From IMG/VR virus record IMGVR_UViG_3300037180_000021, positions 1 to 64,000 of that record: DNA of 64,000 nt. One strand, 5' to 3'. This DNA comes from a virus. Shown in pieces: positions 30,304 to 46,829 of the stretch; the first letter of the stretch is position 1, and each line of letters starts with the position of its first letter. Both the position numbers and the translations under genes were made by a program. The notes below the pieces were generated by a model that did no database searches, was not told the origin of the DNA, and was given only the letters and a program-made list of their open reading frames with translations.

Positions 30304-31371
30304 TCAACATGCAGGCTCTAGGGATTGACGGGTGCCATGACTGACATTCGGGTGCGTCCACTCGCCGCTATACAGCCCGTCATAGGTCGGGCTTTCCCCG
30401 TTTGCGCCGATGCCCAAGAGCGAGCGGAAGGCGTTGAACGGGTAGAAGCGGCGATTGAAACGGAAGGTAAATTCATTGAGGTAGGCTTGCAGGTGCTTAG
30501 GCTCGATGCGCCCGTGGTGAGTACCTTGCAGCCAAGCCTTGAGGTTGCTGAAAACAAGGTGAACGATAGGCAGGTATTCTTCGGCCACCTCGGGCTTGTT
30601 CGACTCGACAACCGGCATGTGGGCGTAGCCGCGATCAGCCAGCGAGTTGTAGCCGCCCCAAGCGTCGGTAACGACCATGTTGGACGTAGGATCGACCGCT
30701 GCCTCTACAAAGCCGCACAGGGACTTGGCGGTACGGTCGGGGACAATTTCCAGCCTGAGACGGCCAGCGTAGCGCCCGCCACGCCTTTCGGGCTTGTCGC
30801 CCTTCTTGGGCGGTCTGGTGCGAACCTCGACGGCGGCGACCACAAGCGTCTTTTGGTCGGCATGTGGGCCTTTGCCCTCCCCGCGCAGCACGCCGCCGAT
30901 ATAGGTTTCGTCGATTTCAATATGGTCCCGGCCCGAAATGCTGCCGCCGATCCGGTCGCGGTCTTGGCGCACCATACCGGCGCGAAGCTTGTGCAGGATG
31001 CCAAAGGCAGTTTCATACCGGGTCAAGCCAAGCTGGCGCTGGAATTGAACGGCAGACAGGCCGGGCGTCATGCTGGAAATGAGGTAAGCGCCCCAAAACC
31101 AAGTCGTCAGCGGTGTATGGGTGCGCTCCATGACCGTGCCGACCGTCAGAGAGGTTTGCTTACGGCACTTCCGACACGCCAGCACAAGCGGGCGTTTGGC
31201 AATGCGTACAGGCTCGCCACGGGCTTTGCAGTGCGGGCATTGGAAGCCGTCAGGCCATTTTGCGCCTTCCAGATAGCGACCGCAGGCCGCGTCGTCCGGG
31301 AACAGTTTTTGGAACTGCGGCAGGGACTTGGGGAAGGGCAGGTGTTCCCATTTGTGAATGTCGTGGGTCAT
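30304..31371 (-). CDS. IS1595-family DDE transposase
   Basis: Start MTHDIHKWEHLPFPKSL. Zn-ribbon FQCPHCKARGEP...LACRKCRKQTS, then THTPLTTWFWGAYLI, YETAFGILHKLR and a DDE region. Confidence 0.85.
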   Translation of the reverse strand: MTHDIHKWEHLPFPKSLPQFQKLFPDDAACGRYLEGAKWPDGFQCPHCKARGEPVRIAKRPLVLACRKCRKQTSLTVGTVMERTHTPLTTWFWGAYLISSMTPGLSAVQFQRQLGLTRYETAFGILHKLRAGMVRQDRDRIGGSISGRDHIEIDETYIGGVLRGEGKGPHADQKTLVVAAVEVRTRPPKKGDKPERRGGRYAGRLRLEIVPDRTAKSLCGFVEAAVDPTSNMVVTDAWGGYNSLADRGYAHMPVVESNKPEVAEEYLPIVHLVFSNLKAWLQGTHHGRIEPKHLQAYLNEFTFRFNRRFYPFNAFRSLLGIGANGESPTYDGLYSGEWTHPNVSHGTRQSLEPAC

Positions 31372-31375
31372 GTGG

Positions 31376-31627
31376 CTAGTAGAATTTCCGTTCAAGATAA
31401 ATCTCCCCGTCGAAGTGATCAAAGGGACAACACTCAAGCTCTTTGTCGGTCGTCTCCGGGTCAACAAGACCATCGCAAGCCCATACACCATGGCCCTCAT
31501 ATTCGAGCGTGCCGCCGCATACAGGGCATTTCTTCGGAACAAATCGTCCGTTGTTATCTCTCGGTGATAGGGGCGTCAGGGATTTAGGGAAAGGCAGTTT
31601 TTCCCAGTTGTGAATGTCGTGGATCAT
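31376..31627 (-). CDS. small Zn-ribbon protein sharing its first 16 residues with the transposase
   Basis: MIHDIHNWEKLPFPKSL... then CPVCGGTLEYEGHGVWACDG. Confidence 0.5.
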   Translation of the reverse strand: MIHDIHNWEKLPFPKSLTPLSPRDNNGRFVPKKCPVCGGTLEYEGHGVWACDGLVDPETTDKELECCPFDHFDGEIYLERKFY

Positions 31628-33291: not shown

Positions 33292-35397
33292 ATGATGGGT
33301 AAGCTGACGCTGTTCCGCGACAACCTCGTCAACTTCGTGACGGGCCTCGGCACGTGGAAGGACCCGTCAGCAAGCCTGCGCTACAATTTGAATTTGGTCC
33401 AACGTGACCAGCTGGAGAACGCCTACCGCAGCGACTGGATCTCCAGGCGGCTGGTTGACGCGCCGGCCGACGACGCCGCCCGAGAGTGGCGCCAGTGGCA
33501 CGCGTCCCAGGACCAGATCGAGGTCATCGAGGACGTCGAGCGCGAGCACAACATCCAGAAGAAGCTGCGGCTGGCGCTGATCCGCGCCAGGCTGTACGGC
33601 GGCGCCGGCATGGTGCTGGGGGTGGACGATGGTAAGCCTGCGGAGGAACCACTGGACATCGACGCCGTCGGCAAGGACGCGCTCAAGTTCGTGGTGGTGA
33701 TGAACCGCTACGAGCTGGCCGCGGGACCTCGCATCTACAACGTCGAGTCGCCGTGGTACACCTACCCAGAATACTTCACGGTGCAGTCGCCGCTGTTCGG
33801 CTTCTACGGAGAGAAGGGGAACAGTCAGCCCGAGAGCTGGCAGGGGCAGGCCGGCGATCCTGCGCGGCAGGAGACGCCGCAGTCAGGCATGGTGCGCATC
33901 CACCCCAGCCGCGTGGTGCAGTTCGCCGGTGCCGAGCTGCCTGACTGGCGGCTGGTGCCGCTGGGCGGCCTGTGGGGTGATAGCATCTTACAGGCGGTTG
34001 AGGACATCCTGAAGAAGTTCGGCATGACCGTCGGCGGCCTGGCCGCCATGGTCAACGATGCCAAGATGGACGTGGTCAAGATACCAGAGTTCAGCAAGAA
34101 GATCTCCACGGCCGAGTACGCCAACCAGCTGATCGGACGCTTCAGCGCTGCCAACCAGGCCAAGTCTGTCATCAACACGCTGGTCCTCGACACCAACGAG
34201 GAGTGGGAGCGGGTGCAGACCAACTTCGGCGGCGTGCCGCAGGTGTTGGAGAAATTCATGACGCTGGCCTGCGCGTCCGCCGGCGTGCCGTTCTCACGGG
34301 TGTTCGGCCAGCAGAGTCGCGGCCTCGGCGGCAACGAGCACAGCGGTGCCAGCAGCGACGTCAAGAACTACTACGATATGATCGCTGCGGACCAGAAGAA
34401 TGTCTACACCCCGGCGCTGGACACGCTCGACCAGGTGCTGCTGCGCTCCGCGCTAGGCAAGTTCGACCCCAACGTCTACTACGAGTGGAACCCTCTGTCG
34501 CAGCCCGACCCCAAGGAGATCGCGGCCATCAGCTTGCAGAAGGCCCAGGCCACGCAGGTCTATATGACGGGTGGCTTGATCAACGAGGACGCACTGCGCG
34601 CCGCCGTAGTCAACCAGCTGATCGAGGACGGCGTCTATCCTGGGCTGGAAGACGCCATCGACGAGTTCGGCGAGGAGCCGGATGAGCCCGACGGCAGCTT
34701 CGACCCGCAGTCTGGTGCCCCCATCCCCGGCTCACCGGTCCAGGCAGCGATGGAACAGATGAAGGCGAGCGGCAACGGGGGCGACAAGCAGGTCGGTGAC
34801 GCCAAGGAGCCGACGCGGCGGCCGTCGCTGATGCGAAAGCGCACGTATCGTGACTTCAGGAAGATGAGGGATAGCGCGGAGTACTTCGACCGCCTGTCAC
34901 TTCTATCTGTTCGAGATGCTATCCCGCGCACGCTGTACGTGCGGCGTGACGTGCTAAACGGCGACGACATTGTGAAGTGGGCCAAGGCGCAGGGTTTCTC
35001 CACCACACTCCCAGCGGCAGCTATGCACGTCACCATCGCGTTCTCAAAGACGCTGGTTGATTGGATGAAGATGGGCAACGACTATACCGGGGACGACAGG
35101 GGTCGATTCACCGTGCCGCCCGGCGGAGTACGGCTGCTGGAGCGGCTAGGCGACGCCGTGGTCCTCATGTTCTCTTCGTCGCAACTGGCCTACCGCCACG
35201 AGGGCATGAAGAAAGAAGGTGCTAGCTGGGACCATCCTGAGTACCAGCCGCACATCACGGTCAGCTGGGATGTGCCCGAGGATTTTGATCTAGATGCTGT
35301 CGAGCCATACCGTGGGCCGATAAAGCTGGGGCCAGAGATATTCGAGCCGGTGAAGGAAGACTGGAAGTCGACCATCCACGAGGACGCAGCAGAGTGA
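33292..35397 (+). CDS. portal protein (DUF1073-type) fused to a C-terminal 2H-phosphoesterase-like domain
   Basis: The N-terminal ~470 aa resemble DUF1073 portals (FVTGLGTWKDPSAS...SDWISRRLVDAPADDA...). The C-terminal ~155 aa carry two HxT motifs, AAMHVTIAFS (H579) and QPHITVSW (H654). Confidence 0.75.
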   Translation: MMGKLTLFRDNLVNFVTGLGTWKDPSASLRYNLNLVQRDQLENAYRSDWISRRLVDAPADDAAREWRQWHASQDQIEVIEDVEREHNIQKKLRLALIRARLYGGAGMVLGVDDGKPAEEPLDIDAVGKDALKFVVVMNRYELAAGPRIYNVESPWYTYPEYFTVQSPLFGFYGEKGNSQPESWQGQAGDPARQETPQSGMVRIHPSRVVQFAGAELPDWRLVPLGGLWGDSILQAVEDILKKFGMTVGGLAAMVNDAKMDVVKIPEFSKKISTAEYANQLIGRFSAANQAKSVINTLVLDTNEEWERVQTNFGGVPQVLEKFMTLACASAGVPFSRVFGQQSRGLGGNEHSGASSDVKNYYDMIAADQKNVYTPALDTLDQVLLRSALGKFDPNVYYEWNPLSQPDPKEIAAISLQKAQATQVYMTGGLINEDALRAAVVNQLIEDGVYPGLEDAIDEFGEEPDEPDGSFDPQSGAPIPGSPVQAAMEQMKASGNGGDKQVGDAKEPTRRPSLMRKRTYRDFRKMRDSAEYFDRLSLLSVRDAIPRTLYVRRDVLNGDDIVKWAKAQGFSTTLPAAAMHVTIAFSKTLVDWMKMGNDYTGDDRGRFTVPPGGVRLLERLGDAVVLMFSSSQLAYRHEGMKKEGASWDHPEYQPHITVSWDVPEDFDLDAVEPYRGPIKLGPEIFEPVKEDWKSTIHEDAAE

Positions 35398-35807: not shown

Positions 35808-35977
35808 TGACCGAAGACCCCACTCCGAAGAAGCCCGGCAACATTGCCAAGCCGGACTCCCGGCCGCCGCCGACCCAGGGCGGCATCACGCCGACCACCA
35901 ACGTCGGGGCCAAGCGCGTGCAGATCAAGCCGACGCCCGCGGCGCACGAGCCTCCGAAGCCGGAGGATAAGCCGTGA
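35804..35977 (+). CDS. small Pro/Lys-rich protein (57 aa)
   Basis: My translation: MMTEDPTPKKPGNIAKPDSRPPPTQGGITPTTNVGAKRVQIKPTPAAHEPPKPEDKP. ATGA overlap upstream and GTGA overlap downstream. Confidence 0.35.
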   Translation: MMTEDPTPKKPGNIAKPDSRPPPTQGGITPTTNVGAKRVQIKPTPAAHEPPKPEDKP

Positions 35978-36141
35978 GGGAGCAGCAGACGCAGCAGCTC
36001 GCCTACGAGAAGTTCTGGCCGTCGGCGCGTATCCCCACCGGCACGGTGGGCCAGTTAGACGTGCGCTCTGGCCTGGTGTGGCCGTCTGGCGACTCGCGCT
36101 CGCCGTTCGCCACCTCCTCCGGTTACGTGGTGCAGAGCTGA
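35974..36141 (+). CDS. small hypothetical protein (55 aa, GTG start)
   Basis: VREQQTQQLAYEKFWPSARIPTGTVGQLDVRSGLVWPSGDSRSPFATSSGYVVQS. TGATG overlap with the next gene. Confidence 0.3.
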   Translation: MREQQTQQLAYEKFWPSARIPTGTVGQLDVRSGLVWPSGDSRSPFATSSGYVVQS

Positions 36142-38030
36142 TGCTGCTGGGAACTAACCGGAAGCCGTTCTATGACCAGCGCAAGGTTCTCGTAGAGGAC
36201 GCGCGCCCGCGCCCGTACGACCCCACCGGCACCGGCCCGCTGCGCGGCAAGTTCCGCAACGACCTTGATCGCCGCTGGGCCAAGCTGCGGCAGCTCGCCG
36301 TTAGCGCCTTGACCGACCACGGCATGGCCGACCCCACGGTGCAGTCGATCACTCACGCTATGCAGCTGGCGCAGACCGACAAGGTGCCGATGTTCACGCG
36401 GTGGATGGAGGAAGCAACTCGCCAGGTGATGACCAACGAGGACCGCTTCGTCAACATGTACATTTGGCGCGCGGGGGAGGCCGCTGATCCGCAACTGCCG
36501 ACTAACAGTCGCGCCGCCAATGTCATGTCCGACCTCGCTTGCGCTGAGCTTAAAGGCATCTGCGCTGCGGTAGTGCAGCAAGCCACCAGAGTCGTGGCCA
36601 ACGGGCTGCTGGCCAATAAGAAGCCGGCGCGGATCGCGCGCGACGTGGCGGCGATGATCAAGGCGGTCGGCGTTAGTCGCGGTCGTGCCCTAGCCAACTT
36701 CATGGTGGTGAAGGCTTACAATTGTGCGCTGCTGGACATGTTCCGCCGGCAGGGCGTCACGCACGTCGGAGTGATGGCGGAGAGAATTAGAGTTAAGCGC
36801 GGGGCGCACGGGCTGACGCGGGATGCCGACGTCGATCTCTCCACCGTCGAGGTGCTCACGGCTGGCGACGATGACGTCTGCCCTACTTGTGAGGAGATCA
36901 GCAATGATGGCCCCTACGCGCTGGACGACGCCGAGGGGCTGATCCCTGCGCACCTGAATTGTGTTTTACCAGGGGCTATTGTTGAAGGACAGGTTTTGGC
37001 GTCTCTAAAATCCTGGTATTCTGGTCCAGCTATTGAGATTAGTACGAGAGGTGGGAAAAGACTTAGCGTCACTGGTCAACACCCCGTACTGACATCGCTC
37101 GGGCCTGTTGTGGCTCAAGATATTTGCGAGGGAATGAAGCTTCTTTGCAAGAGTGAGGATTTTAGGGGTAGCTCCGTTGGTTTTAATGATTACTACAGTC
37201 CACCTCTTATTGAGGAGATATTTGATGCGCTTAGGGTTCAGGGATGCTGCCTTGTCCCCCCAAGCAGTGATGATCTCCACGGCGATGCGAGGCTTATCAA
37301 TGGTGATGTCGACATTGTAGCGGTAGATTGGCGTTTGTTGCGTTACATCCAGTTTCAGTTCGCAAAGCGCGGCAGCAAGCTCATTCTCCCATTTACCAAC
37401 ATGGGACATGTGGAACTGCTTAGACTTGCTGCGGTGAAGCAGCTCCTTTCTCGACGCTTTGCGTCCTTTGGCAGCTTTCCAAGCTCCGGAGCACTGACGT
37501 CGGACCGCCCTGCGACCTTTTTTCTTGATCAGCCCCCATTTAAGATACTCAGCTTCGGAAGCGGATCTCAGTTTGATACCCCCTTTCATGAAACATTTGC
37601 CAAGTACCCCTCGTCCTATTCCAGTTTGATCCGAAAGGTTTTTCATAGAAGTTCCGGCCAAGTAACCATTGATAAGTTGACGAAGCTGTCCTCTCTTAAA
37701 AATAATCTTGGGTCGTCCGGGATTTCTAAGTACGTCCTTGAGCAGGCTGTAAATTTCTCTTCGAGGTATGCCCAGTTTTTTAGTGATCTTATGACCCGAC
37801 AACCCTTGTTGATAGAGATGGATGATGTCGTTTCGGTCCGCAGCTTTAACTATGTGGGACATGTTTATGACCTCCAGACGTCTGTTGGATACATGATAGC
37901 ACAAAAAATCCTTTTGTGTAACTGCCGCTGTGCGTTCGTGCCGGCTGAGGACTTGCGGTTCGCTCCGGTGCGCGACGCCTTCGACCCGGACGAGCCGCGT
38001 GATGAGCATGGGGAGGAGAGTGATGAATAA
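36141..38030 (+). CDS. head morphogenesis protein (Mu F / SPP1 gp7 family), interrupted by an intein
   Basis: Hallmark C-terminal motif GDDDVCPTCEEISNDGPY...IPAHLN / CRCAFVP is split by 321 codons. Start MLLGTNRKPFYDQRK chosen. Confidence 0.75.
   Translation: MLLGTNRKPFYDQRKVLVEDARPRPYDPTGTGPLRGKFRNDLDRRWAKLRQLAVSALTDHGMADPTVQSITHAMQLAQTDKVPMFTRWMEEATRQVMTNEDRFVNMYIWRAGEAADPQLPTNSRAANVMSDLACAELKGICAAVVQQATRVVANGLLANKKPARIARDVAAMIKAVGVSRGRALANFMVVKAYNCALLDMFRRQGVTHVGVMAERIRVKRGAHGLTRDADVDLSTVEVLTAGDDDVCPTCEEISNDGPYALDDAEGLIPAHLNCVLPGAIVEGQVLASLKSWYSGPAIEISTRGGKRLSVTGQHPVLTSLGPVVAQDICEGMKLLCKSEDFRGSSVGFNDYYSPPLIEEIFDALRVQGCCLVPPSSDDLHGDARLINGDVDIVAVDWRLLRYIQFQFAKRGSKLILPFTNMGHVELLRLAAVKQLLSRRFASFGSFPSSGALTSDRPATFFLDQPPFKILSFGSGSQFDTPFHETFAKYPSSYSSLIRKVFHRSSGQVTIDKLTKLSSLKNNLGSSGISKYVLEQAVNFSSRYAQFFSDLMTRQPLLIEMDDVVSVRSFNYVGHVYDLQTSVGYMIAQKILLCNCRCAFVPAEDLRFAPVRDAFDPDEPRDEHGEESDE
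36960..37922 (+). other. intein (321 aa) in the Mu F-like gene
   Basis: Starts CVLPGAIVEG, has LSVTGQHPVLT (block B), VGHVYDLQTSVGYMIAQKILLCN (blocks F/G), then Cys+1 of CRC. No in-frame LAGLIDADG or HNH motif seen. Confidence 0.7.
37005..37862 (-). CDS. putative homing endonuclease (two HTH segments plus Vsr/DUF559-like PD-(D/E)XK) encoded antisense inside the intein
   Basis: MSHIVKAADRNDIIHLYQQGLSGHKITKKLGIPRREIY...YLAGTSMKNLSDQTGIGRGVL...GKWENELAAALCELKLDVTQQTPIYRYNVDITIDKPRIAVEIITAWGDK...WTVVIIKTNG. 285 aa with protein-like composition, in an AT-rich segment. Confidence 0.55.
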   Translation of the reverse strand: MSHIVKAADRNDIIHLYQQGLSGHKITKKLGIPRREIYSLLKDVLRNPGRPKIIFKRGQLRQLINGYLAGTSMKNLSDQTGIGRGVLGKCFMKGGIKLRSASEAEYLKWGLIKKKGRRAVRRQCSGAWKAAKGRKASRKELLHRSKSKQFHMSHVGKWENELAAALCELKLDVTQQTPIYRYNVDITIDKPRIAVEIITAWGDKAASLNPKRIKYLLNKRWTVVIIKTNGATPKILTLAKKLHSLANILSHNRPERCQYGVLTSDAKSFPTSRTNLNSWTRIPGF

Positions 38031-38373
38031 TAAACTGATGAACGACACCTCGGCCGAGGCCGTCAACGTCGGCCTGGGCAAGCCGGCGCCGGCTCAGGTA
38101 GGCCCGGACCCGCGGCTGATCCACGAGCTGGCCACCTACGTCAGCAAGGTCGGCATCGGCGCCGACCTCAACGCCTTCATCGCTGCACTCGCAGTCGTGG
38201 CCGGCGGCATGATCGGCGGCTACTGCGCCACGGCCGAGGCTGTGGACAATACTATAGGCGGCCACAACGCGATCGTTGCCTCGCAGGCCCGGTTGCGCTG
38301 GCGCACTAACCAGGACGCCAAGAAGAAGGAGCACGATGAACGTGCCGCACAACAGCAAGAAAAAGTTCAGTAA
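38023..38373 (+). CDS. hypothetical protein
   Basis: Start MNNKLMNDTSAEAV overlaps the Mu F stop. One hydrophobic segment, AALAVVAGGMIGGY. Confidence 0.45.
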   Translation: MNNKLMNDTSAEAVNVGLGKPAPAQVGPDPRLIHELATYVSKVGIGADLNAFIAALAVVAGGMIGGYCATAEAVDNTIGGHNAIVASQARLRWRTNQDAKKKEHDERAAQQQEKVQ

Positions 38374-40177
38374 GAACTTAGACGCCTCGTTTTCCTCCCT
38401 CATACGCCAGCTCGAGGACGCTCAGCAGGGTCTCAGCTTCGAGACCAGCGAGGAGAGCGAAGATGTCACCTGCCCACAGTGCGACACCGTCTATCCCAAA
38501 GAACAAGAACACTGCCCCAACTGCGGAGCGACGAATATGAGAGACCACTCTATCCAGATGTTCGACGCCTTCGTGGTTGACGGCGTGCGCAGGACAAGCG
38601 ACGGCTACCTGACGTGCAACGCACGCGTGGCGCGCACCGGCATCCAGACCTACAAGGGCTCCGAGCTGGGACGCCCGGACCTCGGCGAGGTCCGCGTCTA
38701 CCGCCCGCCGAGCGAGGTATTCAGCAAGGACGCCATGCACTCCATGGCGCACCGGCCGATAACGCTGAACCACCCCAGCGAGCAGGTCAACGCCGCCAAC
38801 TGGAAGAAGTACGCGATAGGCCACACCGGTGACGAGGTGGTGCGCGACGGCGACGTCATCCGCGTGCCCATGGTGGTGATGGACGCCGCGGCGATCGACG
38901 CCATTGAGAGTGGCAAGGCGAAGGAGCTGAGCGTCGGCTACACCACTGACCTGAAGTGGAAGAAGGGAACCACCGACAAGGGCGAGACCTACGACGCGAT
39001 GCAGACTGCTATCCGAGGCAACCACCTGGCCGTGGTGCCGGTGGCCAGAGGCGGCGACAAATTGAGAGTTGGCGACGATGACTCTGTGCAGGAGATCGAC
39101 CCCGACTCTCTCCACTATCTCCGCGTCATGACCCATCACAAGTCGGCACCGGTAGTCAAGAAATTGGCGGCGGCGGACCTGAAGTCTTTGCTGACCACCA
39201 ACTACGGTGACGCCATCGGCACGGCAAAATACGATGAGTATTGTGCTGGGCTTGATCTGGACGACGCCGCGGTCGACGACCGCGGGTTCTCTGAAGAGGA
39301 CCGCAAGAAGCTGGCCAAGTCCGGCGCCGCGCTACCCGGCGGCGGCTTCCCGATCAAGACGGTGGAGGACTTAAAGAACGCCGTCAGGGCCATCGGCCGC
39401 GCCAAGGACCCGGCGGCGGCCAAGGCTCACATCATTTCTCGCGCCAAGTCTCTAGGCGCGACGAAGGAACTACCCGCCGACTGGGTCAAGTCGAAAACAA
39501 GCGACGCTCAAGAACAAGGAGAAAAAACTATGAGCGCTATCGTAACCATCGACGGCAGCCCGATCGAAGTTGCCGATGAGCTGTCTGCCAGTGTCATCCG
39601 CAAGCAGATTGCCACTCTGATCGCCGACAAGGCGGACCTGAAGGGCAAGCTGGACAAGGCAGCAGCCGACAAGGAAGAAGAAGATGAGGAGAAGGTCCGC
39701 GGCAAGAAGGCCGTGGACGCCAAGGACGGCGAGATCGCTGCGCTCAAGAAGCAGCTCGTCGACGCGCAGGCCGGGGCCACTCCGGCAATCCTTGACAAGC
39801 TGGTCAAGGACCGCCTCGCCGTGATCGACCGTGCCAGCAAGATCCTGGACAAGGCGTTCTCGTTCGACGGCAAGTCGAACTCCGACATCGCCCGCGCGGC
39901 GGTCGCCAAACACTACGGCGACTCATTCGTCAAGGACAAGTCGGACGACTACGTCGCCCCGTTGTTCGACGCGATCGACGTCAAGGATGGCGACAAGGGC
40001 CGCAATACCGGCCATCGCAATCTTGGACGCGCCATTGGTGACGCAGCCAGGCGGCATGGTAACAGCTCCGGAGACAGCAGCGTTGACGTCCGCGACGCGG
40101 CGTTCGCCGACATGGAGAAGGACCTCAACAACGCTTGGCGCCGCCCGCACGCCGCCGGCGGCGGCGACGGCAAGTAA
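38336..40177 (+). CDS. DUF2213-like scaffold/prohead protein with N-terminal Zn-ribbon and C-terminal coiled coil
   Basis: CPQCDTVYPKEQEHCPNCG, then RRTSDGYLTCNARVARTGIQTYKGSELG...VRVYRPPSEVFSKDAMHSMAHRPITLNHP (DUF2213 pattern from memory). Position is between the Mu F-like gene and the capsid gene. Confidence 0.55.
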   Translation: MNVPHNSKKKFSKNLDASFSSLIRQLEDAQQGLSFETSEESEDVTCPQCDTVYPKEQEHCPNCGATNMRDHSIQMFDAFVVDGVRRTSDGYLTCNARVARTGIQTYKGSELGRPDLGEVRVYRPPSEVFSKDAMHSMAHRPITLNHPSEQVNAANWKKYAIGHTGDEVVRDGDVIRVPMVVMDAAAIDAIESGKAKELSVGYTTDLKWKKGTTDKGETYDAMQTAIRGNHLAVVPVARGGDKLRVGDDDSVQEIDPDSLHYLRVMTHHKSAPVVKKLAAADLKSLLTTNYGDAIGTAKYDEYCAGLDLDDAAVDDRGFSEEDRKKLAKSGAALPGGGFPIKTVEDLKNAVRAIGRAKDPAAAKAHIISRAKSLGATKELPADWVKSKTSDAQEQGEKTMSAIVTIDGSPIEVADELSASVIRKQIATLIADKADLKGKLDKAAADKEEEDEEKVRGKKAVDAKDGEIAALKKQLVDAQAGATPAILDKLVKDRLAVIDRASKILDKAFSFDGKSNSDIARAAVAKHYGDSFVKDKSDDYVAPLFDAIDVKDGDKGRNTGHRNLGRAIGDAARRHGNSSGDSSVDVRDAAFADMEKDLNNAWRRPHAAGGGDGK

Positions 40178-40217: not shown

Positions 40218-40742
40218 ATGTTGCAGCCCGCACCAGTCCAACAGTACTACAACCGCTACCTCACTTCTGGACAGAACGGCATGCCCGCGACGTCCACGGG
40301 GTGGGACATCGACACTCGCATCTGCGAGGATTACTCCGGGAACGGCATCGGCTTCGGCCTCGTAGTCTCGCAGGGCTTGTCGACCGACCGTGCCGCGGTG
40401 CTCGGGGCCCACGGCGGCACCCAGGCGCTCGGCATCACGGTCAGCGACATTACGCTGCCGAACGTGGTCTCCCCCGGTCCCGACCGCTACCAGAACACCG
40501 ACAACATGGCCGTGGCCGTGCGCGGTGACTTCTGGGTCACGGCCGCCACCAACGTGACGGCAGGGTCGCCGGTGTACTTCGACCCGTCCACCGGGCAGCT
40601 CGGCGATACTGGCACGCTGCTCGAGGGTGCCATGTGGATGACGTCTGCCACCATCGGCCAGCTGGCATTTGGCGCGCAGACCGAGTCACCCAACTTGGCC
40701 GTGGTTCGCCTGGCGCTGAACACCGGCAACGTCAACACCTAA
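40218..40742 (+). CDS. possible capsid decoration/cement protein
   Basis: 174-aa ORF immediately upstream of the major capsid gene. Call is by position only. Confidence 0.35.
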   Translation: MLQPAPVQQYYNRYLTSGQNGMPATSTGWDIDTRICEDYSGNGIGFGLVVSQGLSTDRAAVLGAHGGTQALGITVSDITLPNVVSPGPDRYQNTDNMAVAVRGDFWVTAATNVTAGSPVYFDPSTGQLGDTGTLLEGAMWMTSATIGQLAFGAQTESPNLAVVRLALNTGNVNT

Positions 40743-40780
40743 CGCGTCTCGCACGCAACAACAAGAAAAGGACAACGCAG

Positions 40781-41737
40781 ATGCGTTTGAACTTGTACGA
40801 TGACCAGGAGGCGCTGAGCTTCCTCGTGTCGCAGACCACCTACATCGAGGCAGAGGTATATCGGATTCAGTACCCCGAGATCCTCTACAAGCAACTGGTG
40901 CCGGTCGACTCGTCCGCCAACGAGTGGGCGAAGAGCGTCACCTACTTCAGCATGGACAAGGTTGGCCACGCCGATTGGTTCTCTGGCCAGGCCAGCGACA
41001 TGCGCTTCGCAGACATCAACCGCAACAAGTACGAGCAAGGTATCGAGATGGCCGGCATCGGCTACCGGTACACGCTCGAGGAGATCGGCGCCGCCATGAT
41101 GGTGCCGGGCCTCAATCTTACGGCTGAGCGGGCCGAGGCGGCGCGCTTTGCCTACGAGATGTTCGTGGATCGGTTGGCCTACTTCGGTTCCACAACCAAG
41201 AACACCTACGGGCTGTTCAACGCCCCGACGGTGACGGTGGCAGAGGCGATCGCCGACGGCACCGGCAGCTCGCCGCTGTGGACCACCAAGACGGCGGACC
41301 AGATGATACGCGACGTCAACAACGCGCTGACGGCCGTGTACACCGGGTCGCAGACCGTCGAGCTGGCCGACACCGTGCTGCTGCCGTTGCAGGCGATGTC
41401 GATCCTGTCCAACACCCGCGTGCCCAATACCTACGGCAACGCGCTTGACTACCTGGCGAAGTACAATCAGTACACCTTCCTCACCGGGGCGCCGCTGACC
41501 ATCCGCGGCATCATCGGTCTGGACACCGCTGGTCACGCCGGCCAGGGGCGGCTGGTTGCCTATCGTAAGGACCCGCGGGTGGTGAAGCTTCACGTCCCGA
41601 TGATCCACCGCTTCTTGCCGGTGTGGCAGACTGGACCGATCACGTTCGAGATCCCCGGAATCTTCCGCGTCGGCTCGGTCGAAGTGCGTCGGCCGGCGGC
41701 GTTCCAGTATCTCGACGGAATCACGTCCAACTCGTAA
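40781..41737 (+). CDS. major capsid protein (DUF2184 / HK97-fold type)
   Basis: MRLNLYDDQEALSFLVSQTTYIEAEVYRIQYPEILYKQLVPVD...GIGYRYTLEEI. Followed by a strong terminator. Confidence 0.7.
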   Translation: MRLNLYDDQEALSFLVSQTTYIEAEVYRIQYPEILYKQLVPVDSSANEWAKSVTYFSMDKVGHADWFSGQASDMRFADINRNKYEQGIEMAGIGYRYTLEEIGAAMMVPGLNLTAERAEAARFAYEMFVDRLAYFGSTTKNTYGLFNAPTVTVAEAIADGTGSSPLWTTKTADQMIRDVNNALTAVYTGSQTVELADTVLLPLQAMSILSNTRVPNTYGNALDYLAKYNQYTFLTGAPLTIRGIIGLDTAGHAGQGRLVAYRKDPRVVKLHVPMIHRFLPVWQTGPITFEIPGIFRVGSVEVRRPAAFQYLDGITSNS

Positions 41738-41774
41738 GATCAAGAAGAATAAAGAGCGACGACGTGACACTCAC

Positions 41775-45345: not shown

Positions 45346-46440
45346 ATGTCACTGCTTTTTTTCTTTAATCAATCAAATGGAGCTAGCGCAAATACTTATG
45401 CTGTTTCCATTATTGAGGCAGCGTCGGCGACTGATAGTCTTGGGGGTTCCGCAGTTCAAGCCAACGCCATTATCGAGGTAGCGTCGGCCAATGATAATGT
45501 CAGCGACGTTGCAACACTGCCGATTGTAATTTCAGAAACAGCGTCGGCTGCTGACACAGCATCATCGTTGCTATCAGCCACCGACGTTGCGGTTGAAGCA
45601 GCGGCGGCTTCAGATGTCACGGATGCCGTCACCACACTGTTAGGTGTGGTTTCTGAAGCCGCCAGTGGTGCTGATAACCAAGACGCCTTGCTCAGTACAG
45701 TAGATGGCGTACTGGAGACGGCCTCTGCTGTTGACGTTATAGACGCTCTACTCAGCACCAGCGATGGTATTTCGGAATCGGTTGTTGGCGATGACAGTGT
45801 CACTGCTCTACTTTCAACGGCTGATACGCAGGAAGAGGTTGTTGGCGCTTTTGATGTTCTGACCGACACCGCTGTAGTGAGAAGCTCGATAGCGGAGGCA
45901 GCTGCCGTTTTTGATATGTCCTCGATTGGCGGGGACGTTTTGATGATGACGATCTCGGAGGCAGTGACTGCTTCCGACGCTGCCTCTGACATCGCCACGT
46001 TGCCAAGCACAGTCTCTGAAGTTCTTTTCGCTATCGAGAGCGAGAGCAGCTTAGTAACGGTCTCTGAAGAAACTGTTGAGGCCGCGTTTGCCGACGACCA
46101 GTCATCGGCGTCTGCGTCCGTTCGGGAGACCGTCAGCGAGGCGGCATCGGCCGTTGATACGTCATCGGCGTTGGCGATCCTGCCGATGGTCGTCGCAGAG
46201 AATGCCACGGCGCTCGACATCGCCCGCGCGGCTGGCGTCTTCGTTGTCAGCATCGATGAAGCAGCCGATGCCAGCGATAAGCAGTATTGGCCGATCTTCA
46301 ATAGCATCACGCTCGACGGGGAGCGCAACCGGACCACATTGGCTGGGATGCGAGCGCAGACGGAAATGATAGGGGCGCGAGCGAAGACCACGCTCAAAGG
46401 TGCTGCACGCTCAAGTGTGACGCTCACTGGGAGGCGCTGA
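45346..46440 (+). CDS. protein built from 15 tandem 20-residue repeats
   Basis: 364-aa ORF. See the repeat feature at 45409..46308. Confidence 0.6.
   Translation: MSLLFFFNQSNGASANTYAVSIIEAASATDSLGGSAVQANAIIEVASANDNVSDVATLPIVISETASAADTASSLLSATDVAVEAAAASDVTDAVTTLLGVVSEAASGADNQDALLSTVDGVLETASAVDVIDALLSTSDGISESVVGDDSVTALLSTADTQEEVVGAFDVLTDTAVVRSSIAEAAAVFDMSSIGGDVLMMTISEAVTASDAASDIATLPSTVSEVLFAIESESSLVTVSEETVEAAFADDQSSASASVRETVSEAASAVDTSSALAILPMVVAENATALDIARAAGVFVVSIDEAADASDKQYWPIFNSITLDGERNRTTLAGMRAQTEMIGARAKTTLKGAARSSVTLTGRR
45409..46308 (+). repeat. 15 x 60-nt in-frame degenerate tandem repeats
   Basis: Exactly 20-aa units with pattern h-x-E-x-A/V-x-A-x-D. Examples: IIEAASATDSLGGSAVQANA, IIEVASANDNVSDVATLPIV, ISETASAADTASSLLSATDV, through to SIDEAADASDKQYWPIFNSI. 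Confidence 0.85.
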
Positions 46441-46829
46441 TGTCCTGGCAGGATCAACCAACTGGACCGGACGTTCAGAACTTCTCGATCTCAGCGGGAA
46501 ATCTATTTGAGGTGACTTTCGACTTTTCAGGCGTCACCGGGCTGGACAGCCTTGACGGCTATACGGTTTATTGGAGCGCCTACGAGGAAACCGTTGGCGT
46601 GCCTTTAGCTGGCGTTTCTGCTGTCATCACCAAGTCGTCATTAAGCGGCGGCGGCATCGAGCTTCTTGACTCGCCGTCGACTAGCTGTGTCATGACACTC
46701 AGTGGAATAGACACCGTTGGCTTGCTGCGTAACTACTATCATGAAGCGAGCATCGTCGATGCTGGTGGCAACCAAATCACGCCGACTACCGGCATCATGA
46801 CTGTGCTCGGAACTGAAAATAGAGAATAG
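46440..46829 (+). CDS. hypothetical protein
   Basis: 129-aa ORF, ATGA-type coupling. Confidence 0.5.
   Translation: MSWQDQPTGPDVQNFSISAGNLFEVTFDFSGVTGLDSLDGYTVYWSAYEETVGVPLAGVSAVITKSSLSGGGIELLDSPSTSCVMTLSGIDTVGLLRNYYHEASIVDAGGNQITPTTGIMTVLGTENRE

Follow-up and report, generated by a model that had tools for sequence, protein, structure and literature searches.

An intein in a Mu F-like head-morphogenesis gene that probably carries a Vsr-like homing endonuclease gene on its antisense strand

Inteins that carry a homing endonuclease gene on the opposite strand have recently been reported in actinobacteriophages, where MuF-like minor capsid proteins hold inteins with antisense "VSR -1 ORF" endonucleases (ORF, open reading frame; Gosselin, Arsenault & Gogarten, bioRxiv 2025, doi 10.1101/2025.01.02.630785). 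All of the minor-capsid (MuF-like) inteins of its set are described as non-canonical, and Malisha gp5 and Sejanus gp8 figure in its supplement as "minor capsid, MuF-like ... VSR -1 ORF". Here we analyse a stretch of viral DNA of 64,000 nucleotides (positions 1 to 64,000 of IMG/VR record IMGVR_UViG_3300037180_000021; hereafter the window) in which a Mu F-like head-morphogenesis gene of a phage or prophage is split by an intein with a Vsr-like nuclease gene antisense to it. We consider it likely that this is a mobile intein and that the antisense gene encodes its homing endonuclease. A first-pass annotation made from the letters of the window had regarded such an architecture as undescribed, and on this point the preprint overtakes it: the element belongs to a recently described kind, and our additions are incremental.

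The same preprint cites antisense LAGLIDADG cases, among them Synechocystis DnaX (Gorbalenya 1998; Gogarten 2002), which likewise place the endonuclease opposite a contiguous, presumably functional intein, but with a LAGLIDADG instead of a Vsr-like enzyme and in other host proteins. A second relative is provided by the "fractured genes", in which a free-standing Vsr-like or GIY-YIG endonuclease gene lies between the halves of a split intein (Dassa et al. 2009, PMC2677866). These share with the window a free-standing, phage-associated Vsr-like gene that has its own translation signals within an intein and overlaps intein coding sequence; there, however, as we read the paper, the nuclease is encoded on the same strand and the separately translated intein halves splice in trans, whereas here a single polypeptide is opposed by an antisense nuclease. 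The text of PMC2677866 that we searched contains no antisense case. I-Bth0305I of the EDxHD family, the product of a sense-strand gene within a group I intron (Taylor et al. 2011, PMC3239194; PDB 3r3p), joins, like the minus-strand protein of the window, an N-terminal DNA-binding region of helix-turn-helix (HTH) type to a C-terminal Vsr-like catalytic domain. The window protein lacks EDxHD (it reads ...AVEIITAWGDK...) and resembles 3r3p in fold only; membership of the EDxHD family was rejected on the missing motif and the lack of a sequence-level match. Group I introns with antisense homing-endonuclease genes also pair a mobile splicing element with a nuclease on the opposite strand. Their sense strand need not stay translatable, unlike that of an intein, which must, and real dual coding is therefore forced on the element described here.

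The element in the window resembles the "VSR -1 ORF" inteins in its MuF-like host protein, its Vsr-like nuclease in antisense frame -1 of a contiguous intein, the long helical N-terminal part of the nuclease, and the unstructured in-frame middle of the intein. It is also homologous to published members: tblastn with the window's minus-strand protein matched Malisha (E 3e-10, within gp5) and Sejanus (E 1e-5, within gp8), both antisense. The differences are that the published cases are from actinobacteriophages, whereas the window is probably not an actinophage, its portal protein being closest to portals of Pseudomonas, Synechococcus and Rhizobium phages (36-40% identity); that the ORF here extends from block F to 15 codons past block A, overlapping block B; that the N-terminal part of the nuclease, called unmatched in the preprint, here matches tandem HTH domains; and that a ribosome-binding site and start codon within block F go unmentioned in the parts of the preprint at hand. 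We thus extend the known distribution well beyond actinophages, to cultured phages of Pasteurellaceae, Pseudomonas, Idiomarinaceae and enterobacteria (Salmonella, Escherichia, Pantoea), and show that the nuclease family is present in thousands of metagenomic sequence clusters; the architecture is accordingly widespread among proteobacterial phages as well as in metagenomes. We further add the HTH assignment, frame-resolved and quantitative evidence of selection, the overlap with blocks B and F, and the placement of the start codon and ribosome-binding site inside block F. Coordinates are collected in Table 1.

Table 1. Features of the intein, its antisense gene and the host gene in the window
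Feature	Position	Strand	Remarks
Mu F-like head-morphogenesis gene	36141..38030	+	carries the intein
N-extein, Mu F-like head-morphogenesis protein	36141..36959	+	phrog_758 head morphogenesis, E 5.5e-7; ATG at 36141
Intein, 321 codons	36960..37922	+	translation; C1 at 36960, N321 at 37920, then C+1 at 37923
Intein block B, T38-G-Q-H41	37071..37082	+	antisense to conserved C-terminal Q-Y-G-V of the nuclease
Plus-frame filler, intein residues 140-255	37377..37724	+	pLDDT 28-49; Ser/Leu/Phe-rich
Intein block F, H301-V-Y-D-L-Q	37860..37877	+	reverse complement gives ATG and GGAGG of the antisense gene
C-extein, CRCAFVPAEDLRF..., stop codon included	37923..38030	+	motif IPAHxxCRC uninterrupted in 77/77 nearest extein homologues
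Antisense gene (putative homing endonuclease), 285 codons plus stop	37005..37862	-	frame -1 to the intein
Two HTH modules, residues about 10-46 and 59-93	37584..37835	-	HTH_23 E 0.002 (window protein)
Vsr/DUF559-like nuclease core, residues about 159-263	37074..37388	-	family alignment, profiles, Foldseek
D185	37308..37310	-	invariant acidic residue
E196	37275..37277	-	invariant acidic residue
GGAGG Shine-Dalgarno sequence	37871..37875	-	8 nt upstream of ATG 37862
Candidate sigma-70-like promoter, GTTACA-18-TGcTATCAT	37893..37922	-	complement of block G; consensus scan

The plus strand bears out the proposal of the first-pass annotation that the Mu F motif is split by an intein of 321 codons. 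The insertion divides ...GLIPAHLN/CRCAFVP..., and the translation from 36960 runs CVLPGAIVEG...VTGQHPVLT...GHVYDLQTSVGYMIAQKILLCN and then C, with an N-terminal nucleophile and a C-terminal Asn followed by Cys at +1. Blocks B, F and G are present and conserved in 31 intein homologues: in block B, H41 is invariant and T38, N40 and P42 nearly so; in block F, V302 is invariant and G300, H301, Y303, D304 and L305 nearly so; and the intein ends L-L-C320-N321. An AlphaFold (AF2) model built on the 31 homologues has a predicted local distance difference test score (pLDDT) mostly above 90 for residues 1-130 and 270-322, and of 28-49 for residues 140-255. Every one of its best fold matches is to an intein or a Hint domain (Mtu RecA, DnaX, DnaB, hedgehog; probability 0.9-1.0), that to the Mtu RecA intein having a probability of 1.00. 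The model thus suggests that the two ends of the plus-frame product form a Hint domain, around a middle of roughly 115 residues predicted with low confidence. This filler is dominated by Ser, Leu and Phe (S19, L15 and F12 of 116), and its main constraint appears to be staying open. An earlier description of the whole plus-strand translation opposite the nuclease as a featureless linker therefore holds for residues about 140-255 (some 115 codons of low pLDDT) but not for the remainder, which is Hint domain and truly dual-coding.

An alternative is that the middle of the intein holds a canonical in-frame endonuclease domain and that the minus-strand ORF is incidental. Only the intein's length speaks for this, 321 aa (amino acids) being typical of endonuclease-containing inteins. 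The plus frame contains neither LAGLIDADG nor HNH, as had been noted before, nor any other Pfam domain; residues 140-255 have pLDDT below 50, no fold match covers the middle, and the ratio of nonsynonymous to synonymous substitution rates (dN/dS) of the intein frame exceeds 1 there in relatives, as detailed below. Pfam, pLDDT, fold search and dN/dS together refute this reading, to which we assign a negligible probability.

On the minus strand, an ORF is open over 37005..38081 and encodes 285 aa from the ATG at 37862 (MSHIVKAADRN...YRYNVDITIDKPRIAVEIITAWGDK...RIPGF and stop). It is exactly codon-aligned antisense to the intein, codon position 1 on one strand lying opposite position 3 on the other. 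It stretches from block F to a point 15 codons past block A, as it does in the relatives examined, and for this reason overlaps block B. The annotation had placed it wholly inside the intein; the coordinates agree (37862..37005 within 36960..37922), and to this must be added that it also overlaps the splicing blocks B and F. The overlap outside the filler of about 115 codons is true dual coding with the Hint splicing domain.

In frame -1, a stop codon on one strand reads as TTA, CTA or TCA on the other. Over the 285 codons these three are missing from both frames, save the minus ORF's own stop, and the minus ORF encodes its 49 Leu and Ser residues without using any of them. The overlap has 48% GC, and from base composition the probability that 286 codons stay open in both frames is about 1.5e-13. 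When the minus-strand protein was held fixed and its synonymous codons were resampled, 12.7 plus-frame stops were expected; with the plus-strand protein fixed, 16.7 minus-frame stops were expected; in each case 0 of 5000 resamples were open. Chance opening of both frames is excluded, and the claim that 858 nt (nucleotides) are open on both strands stands.

These tests bear directly on a reading in which the minus ORF is a non-coding shadow ORF of the sort common opposite GC-rich genes. Frame -1 is the antisense frame most easily open, and several long shadow ORFs do lie opposite GC-rich genes elsewhere in the window. The overlap has, however, only 48% GC and P about 1e-13, and the ORF belongs to a large family, is modelled with a pLDDT of 90.7, shows dN/dS of 0.11-0.25 in the minus frame, and has a conserved ribosome-binding site and ATG. 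Openness statistics, family, model, dN/dS and start signals thus refute the shadow-ORF reading, which we give next to no credence.

The minus-strand protein belongs to a large family that was reached by profile methods. Megablast of the gene against the phage collection gave no match, and a search of IMG/VR with the single protein gave no confirmed relative. A word-indexed protein search found one homologue, P0001 on contig L004, 47% identical over the full length; the strand opposite to it again carries an intein-containing Mu F gene, with the nuclease homologue in the same nested position. An exhaustive profile search then returned at least 3,078 cluster representatives at E of 1e-3 or below (1,222 at 1e-10 or below, 158 at 1e-30 or below), most family members being 230-300 aa long. 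In an alignment of 73 diverse members, D185 and E196 are invariant and N183, Q176, A194, R212, W221 and Y259 nearly so; D185 and E196 align with the D and E of 3hrl, as a conserved catalytic Asp/Glu pair.

Searched against PDB, the family profile matched 2lvs (tandem HTH; E 1.6e-7) and 3hrl (DUF559 "endonuclease-like"; E 2.8e-5), matched Vsr (1cw0) weakly (E 0.11), and gave no match to 3r3p at E of 1 or below. Pfam REase_MTES_1575 was found at E below 0.01 in 50 of the 73 members (best 7e-10) and DUF559 in 26, while HTH_58 was found in 41 and HTH_7 in 33. Judged from these profile scores, the kinship to DUF559 and REase_MTES_1575 is at the level of a superfamily. An AF2 model of the minus-strand protein has a mean pLDDT of 90.7 and a predicted template modelling score of 0.72. 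In Foldseek its domains matched 2lvs (probability 0.98), 3hrl (0.99), 3r3p, the I-Bth0305I catalytic domain (0.93; template modelling score, TM, 0.53), and Vsr 1cw0 (TM 0.47), so that profile and fold searches both support a Vsr-like nuclease fold. Family size, predicted fold, selection and conserved arrangement together establish that the minus ORF is a real gene with two HTH domains and a Vsr/DUF559-like core, as first proposed.

Two observations touch on these domains. One family match, P0051 (836 aa), has 11 separate matches to the HTH part of the profile and appears to be a long HTH-repeat array. Plus-frame residues 81-130 (36960..37350 region; opposite minus residues 170-285) lie antisense to the catalytic core of the nuclease and yet have a pLDDT of 85-96; they may be a genuine structured extension of the Hint domain or, as far as the model goes, a covariation artefact imposed by the other strand.

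Selection on the two frames was compared in nine Guernseyvirinae (Salmonella-type) phages, namely TS6, AH01, TU03, dunkel, sidste, SGP007, Snoke, PK1 and BPS11Q3. These carry a homologous element with an antisense ORF of 250 codons and have no indels and no stops in either frame. Variable sites number 83, 36 and 122 at nuclease codon positions 1, 2 and 3. Over the whole ORF, dN/dS is 0.25 in the nuclease frame and 0.69 in the intein frame. At nuclease codons 51-150, which map roughly to the plus-frame filler of the window, it is 0.11 in the nuclease frame and 1.35-1.61 in the intein frame; at codons 151-250, antisense to the N-terminal Hint region, the values are 0.48-0.50 and 0.35-0.54. This pattern indicates that the intein frame, in its middle, is little more than carried along and has only to stay open, and that its flanks are truly dual-coding. 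Between the window and its closest relative, L004, identity in the interior (37380-37740) is 35-60% in the minus frame and 10-30% in the plus frame, and over the N-terminal splicing domain the identities of the two frames are comparable.

The predicted expression signals of the antisense gene lie inside the splicing motifs. Upstream of and at its start the minus strand reads ...ctGGAGGtcataaacATG; the block F His codon CAT yields the ATG (37862..37860) as its complement, and the block F codons GAC-CTC-CAG (D-L-Q) likewise yield GGAGG. Most relatives have GGAGG or GAGG, an 8-nt spacer and ATG (GTG in one), with weaker Shine-Dalgarno variants in L004 (GGAGA), L006 (GAAGG) and L005 (TAGGT) and none in L002. 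The block F His codon is CAT in 9 of 10 diverse loci, as against 39% among the other His codons of the same ORFs, and the block F Leu codon is CTC in 9 of 10 loci, as against 28% expected. Such an excess indicates selection at the nucleotide level for the antisense start and ribosome-binding site. Further upstream, the -10 element of a candidate promoter ends 30 nt before the ATG. For 15 non-independent loci the mean of the best upstream promoter score is 7.9 (background 5.0), and 6 of the 15 reach at least 9 (background 1.7%); high-GC actinophage loci score poorly. Conserved motifs of the two proteins also face each other within the overlap: plus-frame DLHGDAR lies opposite RIAVEI of the nuclease core, the invariant Pro81 opposite Trp221, and H-P-V-L of block B opposite Q-Y-G-V of the nuclease. 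Some conserved motifs appear to be shadows of the other strand.

The nested arrangement recurs in other phages. A tblastn search with the minus-strand protein matched 91 phage records, and each match inspected (Aaphi23, Idiomarinaceae 1N2-2, Pseudomonas BR313c, Salmonella TS6, Mycobacterium Sejanus, Gordonia Malisha and virus Rctr197k) lay antisense within an annotated head, MuF or minor-capsid coding sequence. Both frames are open, and the antisense ORF is codon-aligned, at each of these loci as well as on seven metagenomic contigs, whose sense translations also contain the intein motifs. Altogether, 23 of 23 related loci examined (from phages of Pasteurellaceae, Idiomarinaceae, Pseudomonas, enterobacteria (Salmonella, Escherichia, Pantoea), Mycobacterium and Gordonia, a jumbo virus and metagenome contigs) have the ORF antisense in frame -1 with both strands open.

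Almost all genome annotations overlook this gene. The family members in the protein database searched stem from contigs shorter than 2 kb; on such contigs gene callers report the nuclease because the longer sense ORF is truncated, and GenBank hence almost never annotates it. Among the GenBank records inspected, only that of Salmonella phage PK1 (L021, 609..1418, plus strand) annotates the antisense ORF, as "hypothetical protein" XRA40086.1, and the Snoke record annotates the intein and leaves the antisense gene unannotated; both point to a general annotation blind spot. We regard as evenly poised the broader proposition that the HTH-HTH-Vsr-like family lives obligately antisense to Mu F inteins in most lineages of tailed phages, and not in actinophages alone, forming with them a co-evolved two-strand element. 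Were this so, the promoter would lie opposite block G, the ribosome-binding site and ATG opposite block F and the C-terminal tail opposite block B; the conserved motifs of each strand would in part be shadows of the other's; and the blind spot would be systematic, the nuclease being called almost only where short contigs cut the sense ORF.

The insertion site and composition of the intein speak for its mobility. In each of the 77 nearest extein homologues, which are about 30-55% identical along most of the protein, ...GLIPAHxxCRCAFVP... is uninterrupted, so that the window has an in-frame insertion at a conserved host site for which uninterrupted homologues exist; the insertion point falls exactly between N and C in the motif that the Mu F family conserves best, and within this clade the intein occurs sporadically. 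The insert had been called AT-richer than its flanks, and GC is indeed 0.47 in the intein and 0.64 in the exteins. Absence from the 77 homologues and foreign GC point to recent mobility and fit a recent acquisition, and this sporadic distribution and GC anomaly suggest a homing function indirectly. The product spliced in silico aligns with homologues of 300-350 aa across 85-90% of its length. A metagenome contig, L023 (ENA, WOOD18-1 scaffold_918), encodes a protein (P0151) that is identical to the window's over the whole intein and 99% identical over the matched extein.

We propose that the head gene is translated straight through the element and that the Hint domain (residues about 1-130 and 270-321) would use Cys1, the T..H of block B, block F, Asn321 and Cys+1 to excise the intein and to make the Mu F motif whole again by joining ...IPAHLN to CRCAFVP.... 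The 115 residues or so in between would serve as a spacer that chiefly needs freedom from stops. The minus gene, read codon for codon on the antisense strand, would supply two HTH modules, a helical linker and a Vsr/DUF559-like nuclease. Guided by its HTH modules, this nuclease would most likely cut intein-less Mu F alleles near the site encoding ...AHxNCRC... during co-infection; its predicted target is the intein-less allele ...IPAHLNCRCAFVP..., with the junction at ...ATCCCGGCGCACCTGAAC/TGCCGCTGC.... Recombinational repair would then copy the whole two-strand element into the cut allele, and thereby complete homing. The element is among the clearest natural cases of long antisense dual coding, with about 285 codons and an overlap that in part encodes folded structure in both products. 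It is an example of how a protein-splicing element can take on a selfish nuclease with no fusion between the two. Being compact, it would also lend itself to tests of dual-coding constraints and to the engineering of intein mobility.

Several findings weigh against this interpretation. Splicing, expression of the minus gene, and the activity and target of the nuclease we infer from sequence, and the promoter is a consensus match only. The dN/dS values come from relatives, the window's own lineage offering one homologue at 47% identity. By Pfam gathering scores the window nuclease falls short of both DUF559 (15 vs 20.6 bits) and MTES_1575 (13.4 vs 38.2), although its family matches these profiles as well as 3hrl, 2lvs and HTH_58, and the E-values of its fold matches are weak (0.015-0.06) because each match covers a single domain. 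The residues after E196 read EIITAWGDK, with neither the G-G-x-W-H of some relatives nor the EDxHD of I-Bth0305I, which leaves the catalytic competence of the window nuclease uncertain. On the other strand, the penultimate intein residue is Cys where His is usual (relatives have Ser or His). The 321-aa intein, which profile searches find free of any endonuclease domain, scores 24.4 bits against Pfam Intein_splicing (PF14890), under the cut-off of 35.8, many of its homologues carrying PF14890. The spliced protein scores 16.8 bits against Phage_Mu_F (PF04233), under the gathering score of 29.6; this sub-threshold match (spliced residues 227-278) bridges the splice junction, and PF04233 is carried by intein homologues.

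The uncertainty over catalysis raises the rival that a minus protein is indeed made but never had, or has lost, a homing function: it could be a DNA-binding regulator, a nuclease of phage-phage or phage-host conflict, or a dead remnant locked to the intein. We consider this unlikely, though the likeliest of the rivals. DUF559 and some relatives have, after the catalytic Glu, a His-containing motif that is missing from the window protein; the two HTH modules of this protein are its best-scoring part, and several VSR-like intein groups look vertically inherited according to the preprint (doi 10.1101/2025.01.02.630785). Against it, D185 and E196 are invariant across the 73 diverse members including the window's, the codons of the nuclease core are under strong purifying selection in relatives, and the 77 intein-free homologues and foreign GC point to recent mobility. 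The low Pfam intein score and the missing penultimate His bring up a different possibility, namely that the head gene is disrupted, as a pseudogene or by a non-splicing insertion, and that its plus frame is open by the luck of an insert free of antisense stops. This is very improbable: the intein keeps every nucleophile and blocks A, B, F and G, all of them conserved; it is modelled as a Hint fold with pLDDT above 90; in the absence of selection 12.7 stops would be expected in the plus frame; the gene serves head assembly and stands in an otherwise intact head module; and the same arrangement is found in cultured, viable phages such as Aaphi23, Jerseyvirus, Sejanus and Malisha. Homing by a mobile two-strand element remains the reading that we prefer.

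The host gene lies where a Mu F-like gene is to be looked for, right after the portal gene in a head module whose order is portal (33292-35397), Mu F-like gene, protease/scaffold (38276-40177) and major head protein (40634-41737). The Mu F-like precursor matches head-morphogenesis PHROGs, and its neighbours match phrog_146 (portal; E 3e-127), phrog_530 (protease/scaffold) and phrog_264 (major head). The plus-strand ORF is open over 35844..38030 and would encode 728 aa from its first TTG, at 35844; upstream of 36141 the translation is Arg/Pro-rich, and ATG 36141 is the likely start of the gene. The gene call in L023 begins at the equivalent of window position 36573, giving 485 aa; this start is probably too short, since intein-less homologues of 300-350 aa align from near 36141. 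When the spliced extein was compared with phages by tblastn, it matched two distant haloarchaeal viruses only.

Further observations concern the head module itself. Residues 555-692 of the portal protein (33292..35397, plus strand) also match phrog_755, "RNA ligase" (E 1.4e-21), and this match of the C-terminal 140 residues or so may reflect a mis-named PHROG or a fused domain. The protease/scaffold ORF (38276..40177, plus strand) has a zinc-ribbon-like CPQC...CPNC in its N-terminal 90 residues or so, before the phrog_530 protease match. Long antisense ORFs lie opposite GC-rich head-module genes at 30304..31542 (minus; opposite 30325..31587, plus), 40739..41770 (minus; opposite 40634..41737, plus), 45456..46457 (minus; opposite 45346..46440, plus) and 38378..39139 (minus; within 38276..40177, plus); these look like ordinary GC-driven shadow ORFs, in contrast to the dual-coding region with its 48% GC. 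The whole window has a GC of 0.567 as against about 0.62-0.64 in the head module, and the rest of the window must therefore hold markedly AT-richer parts.

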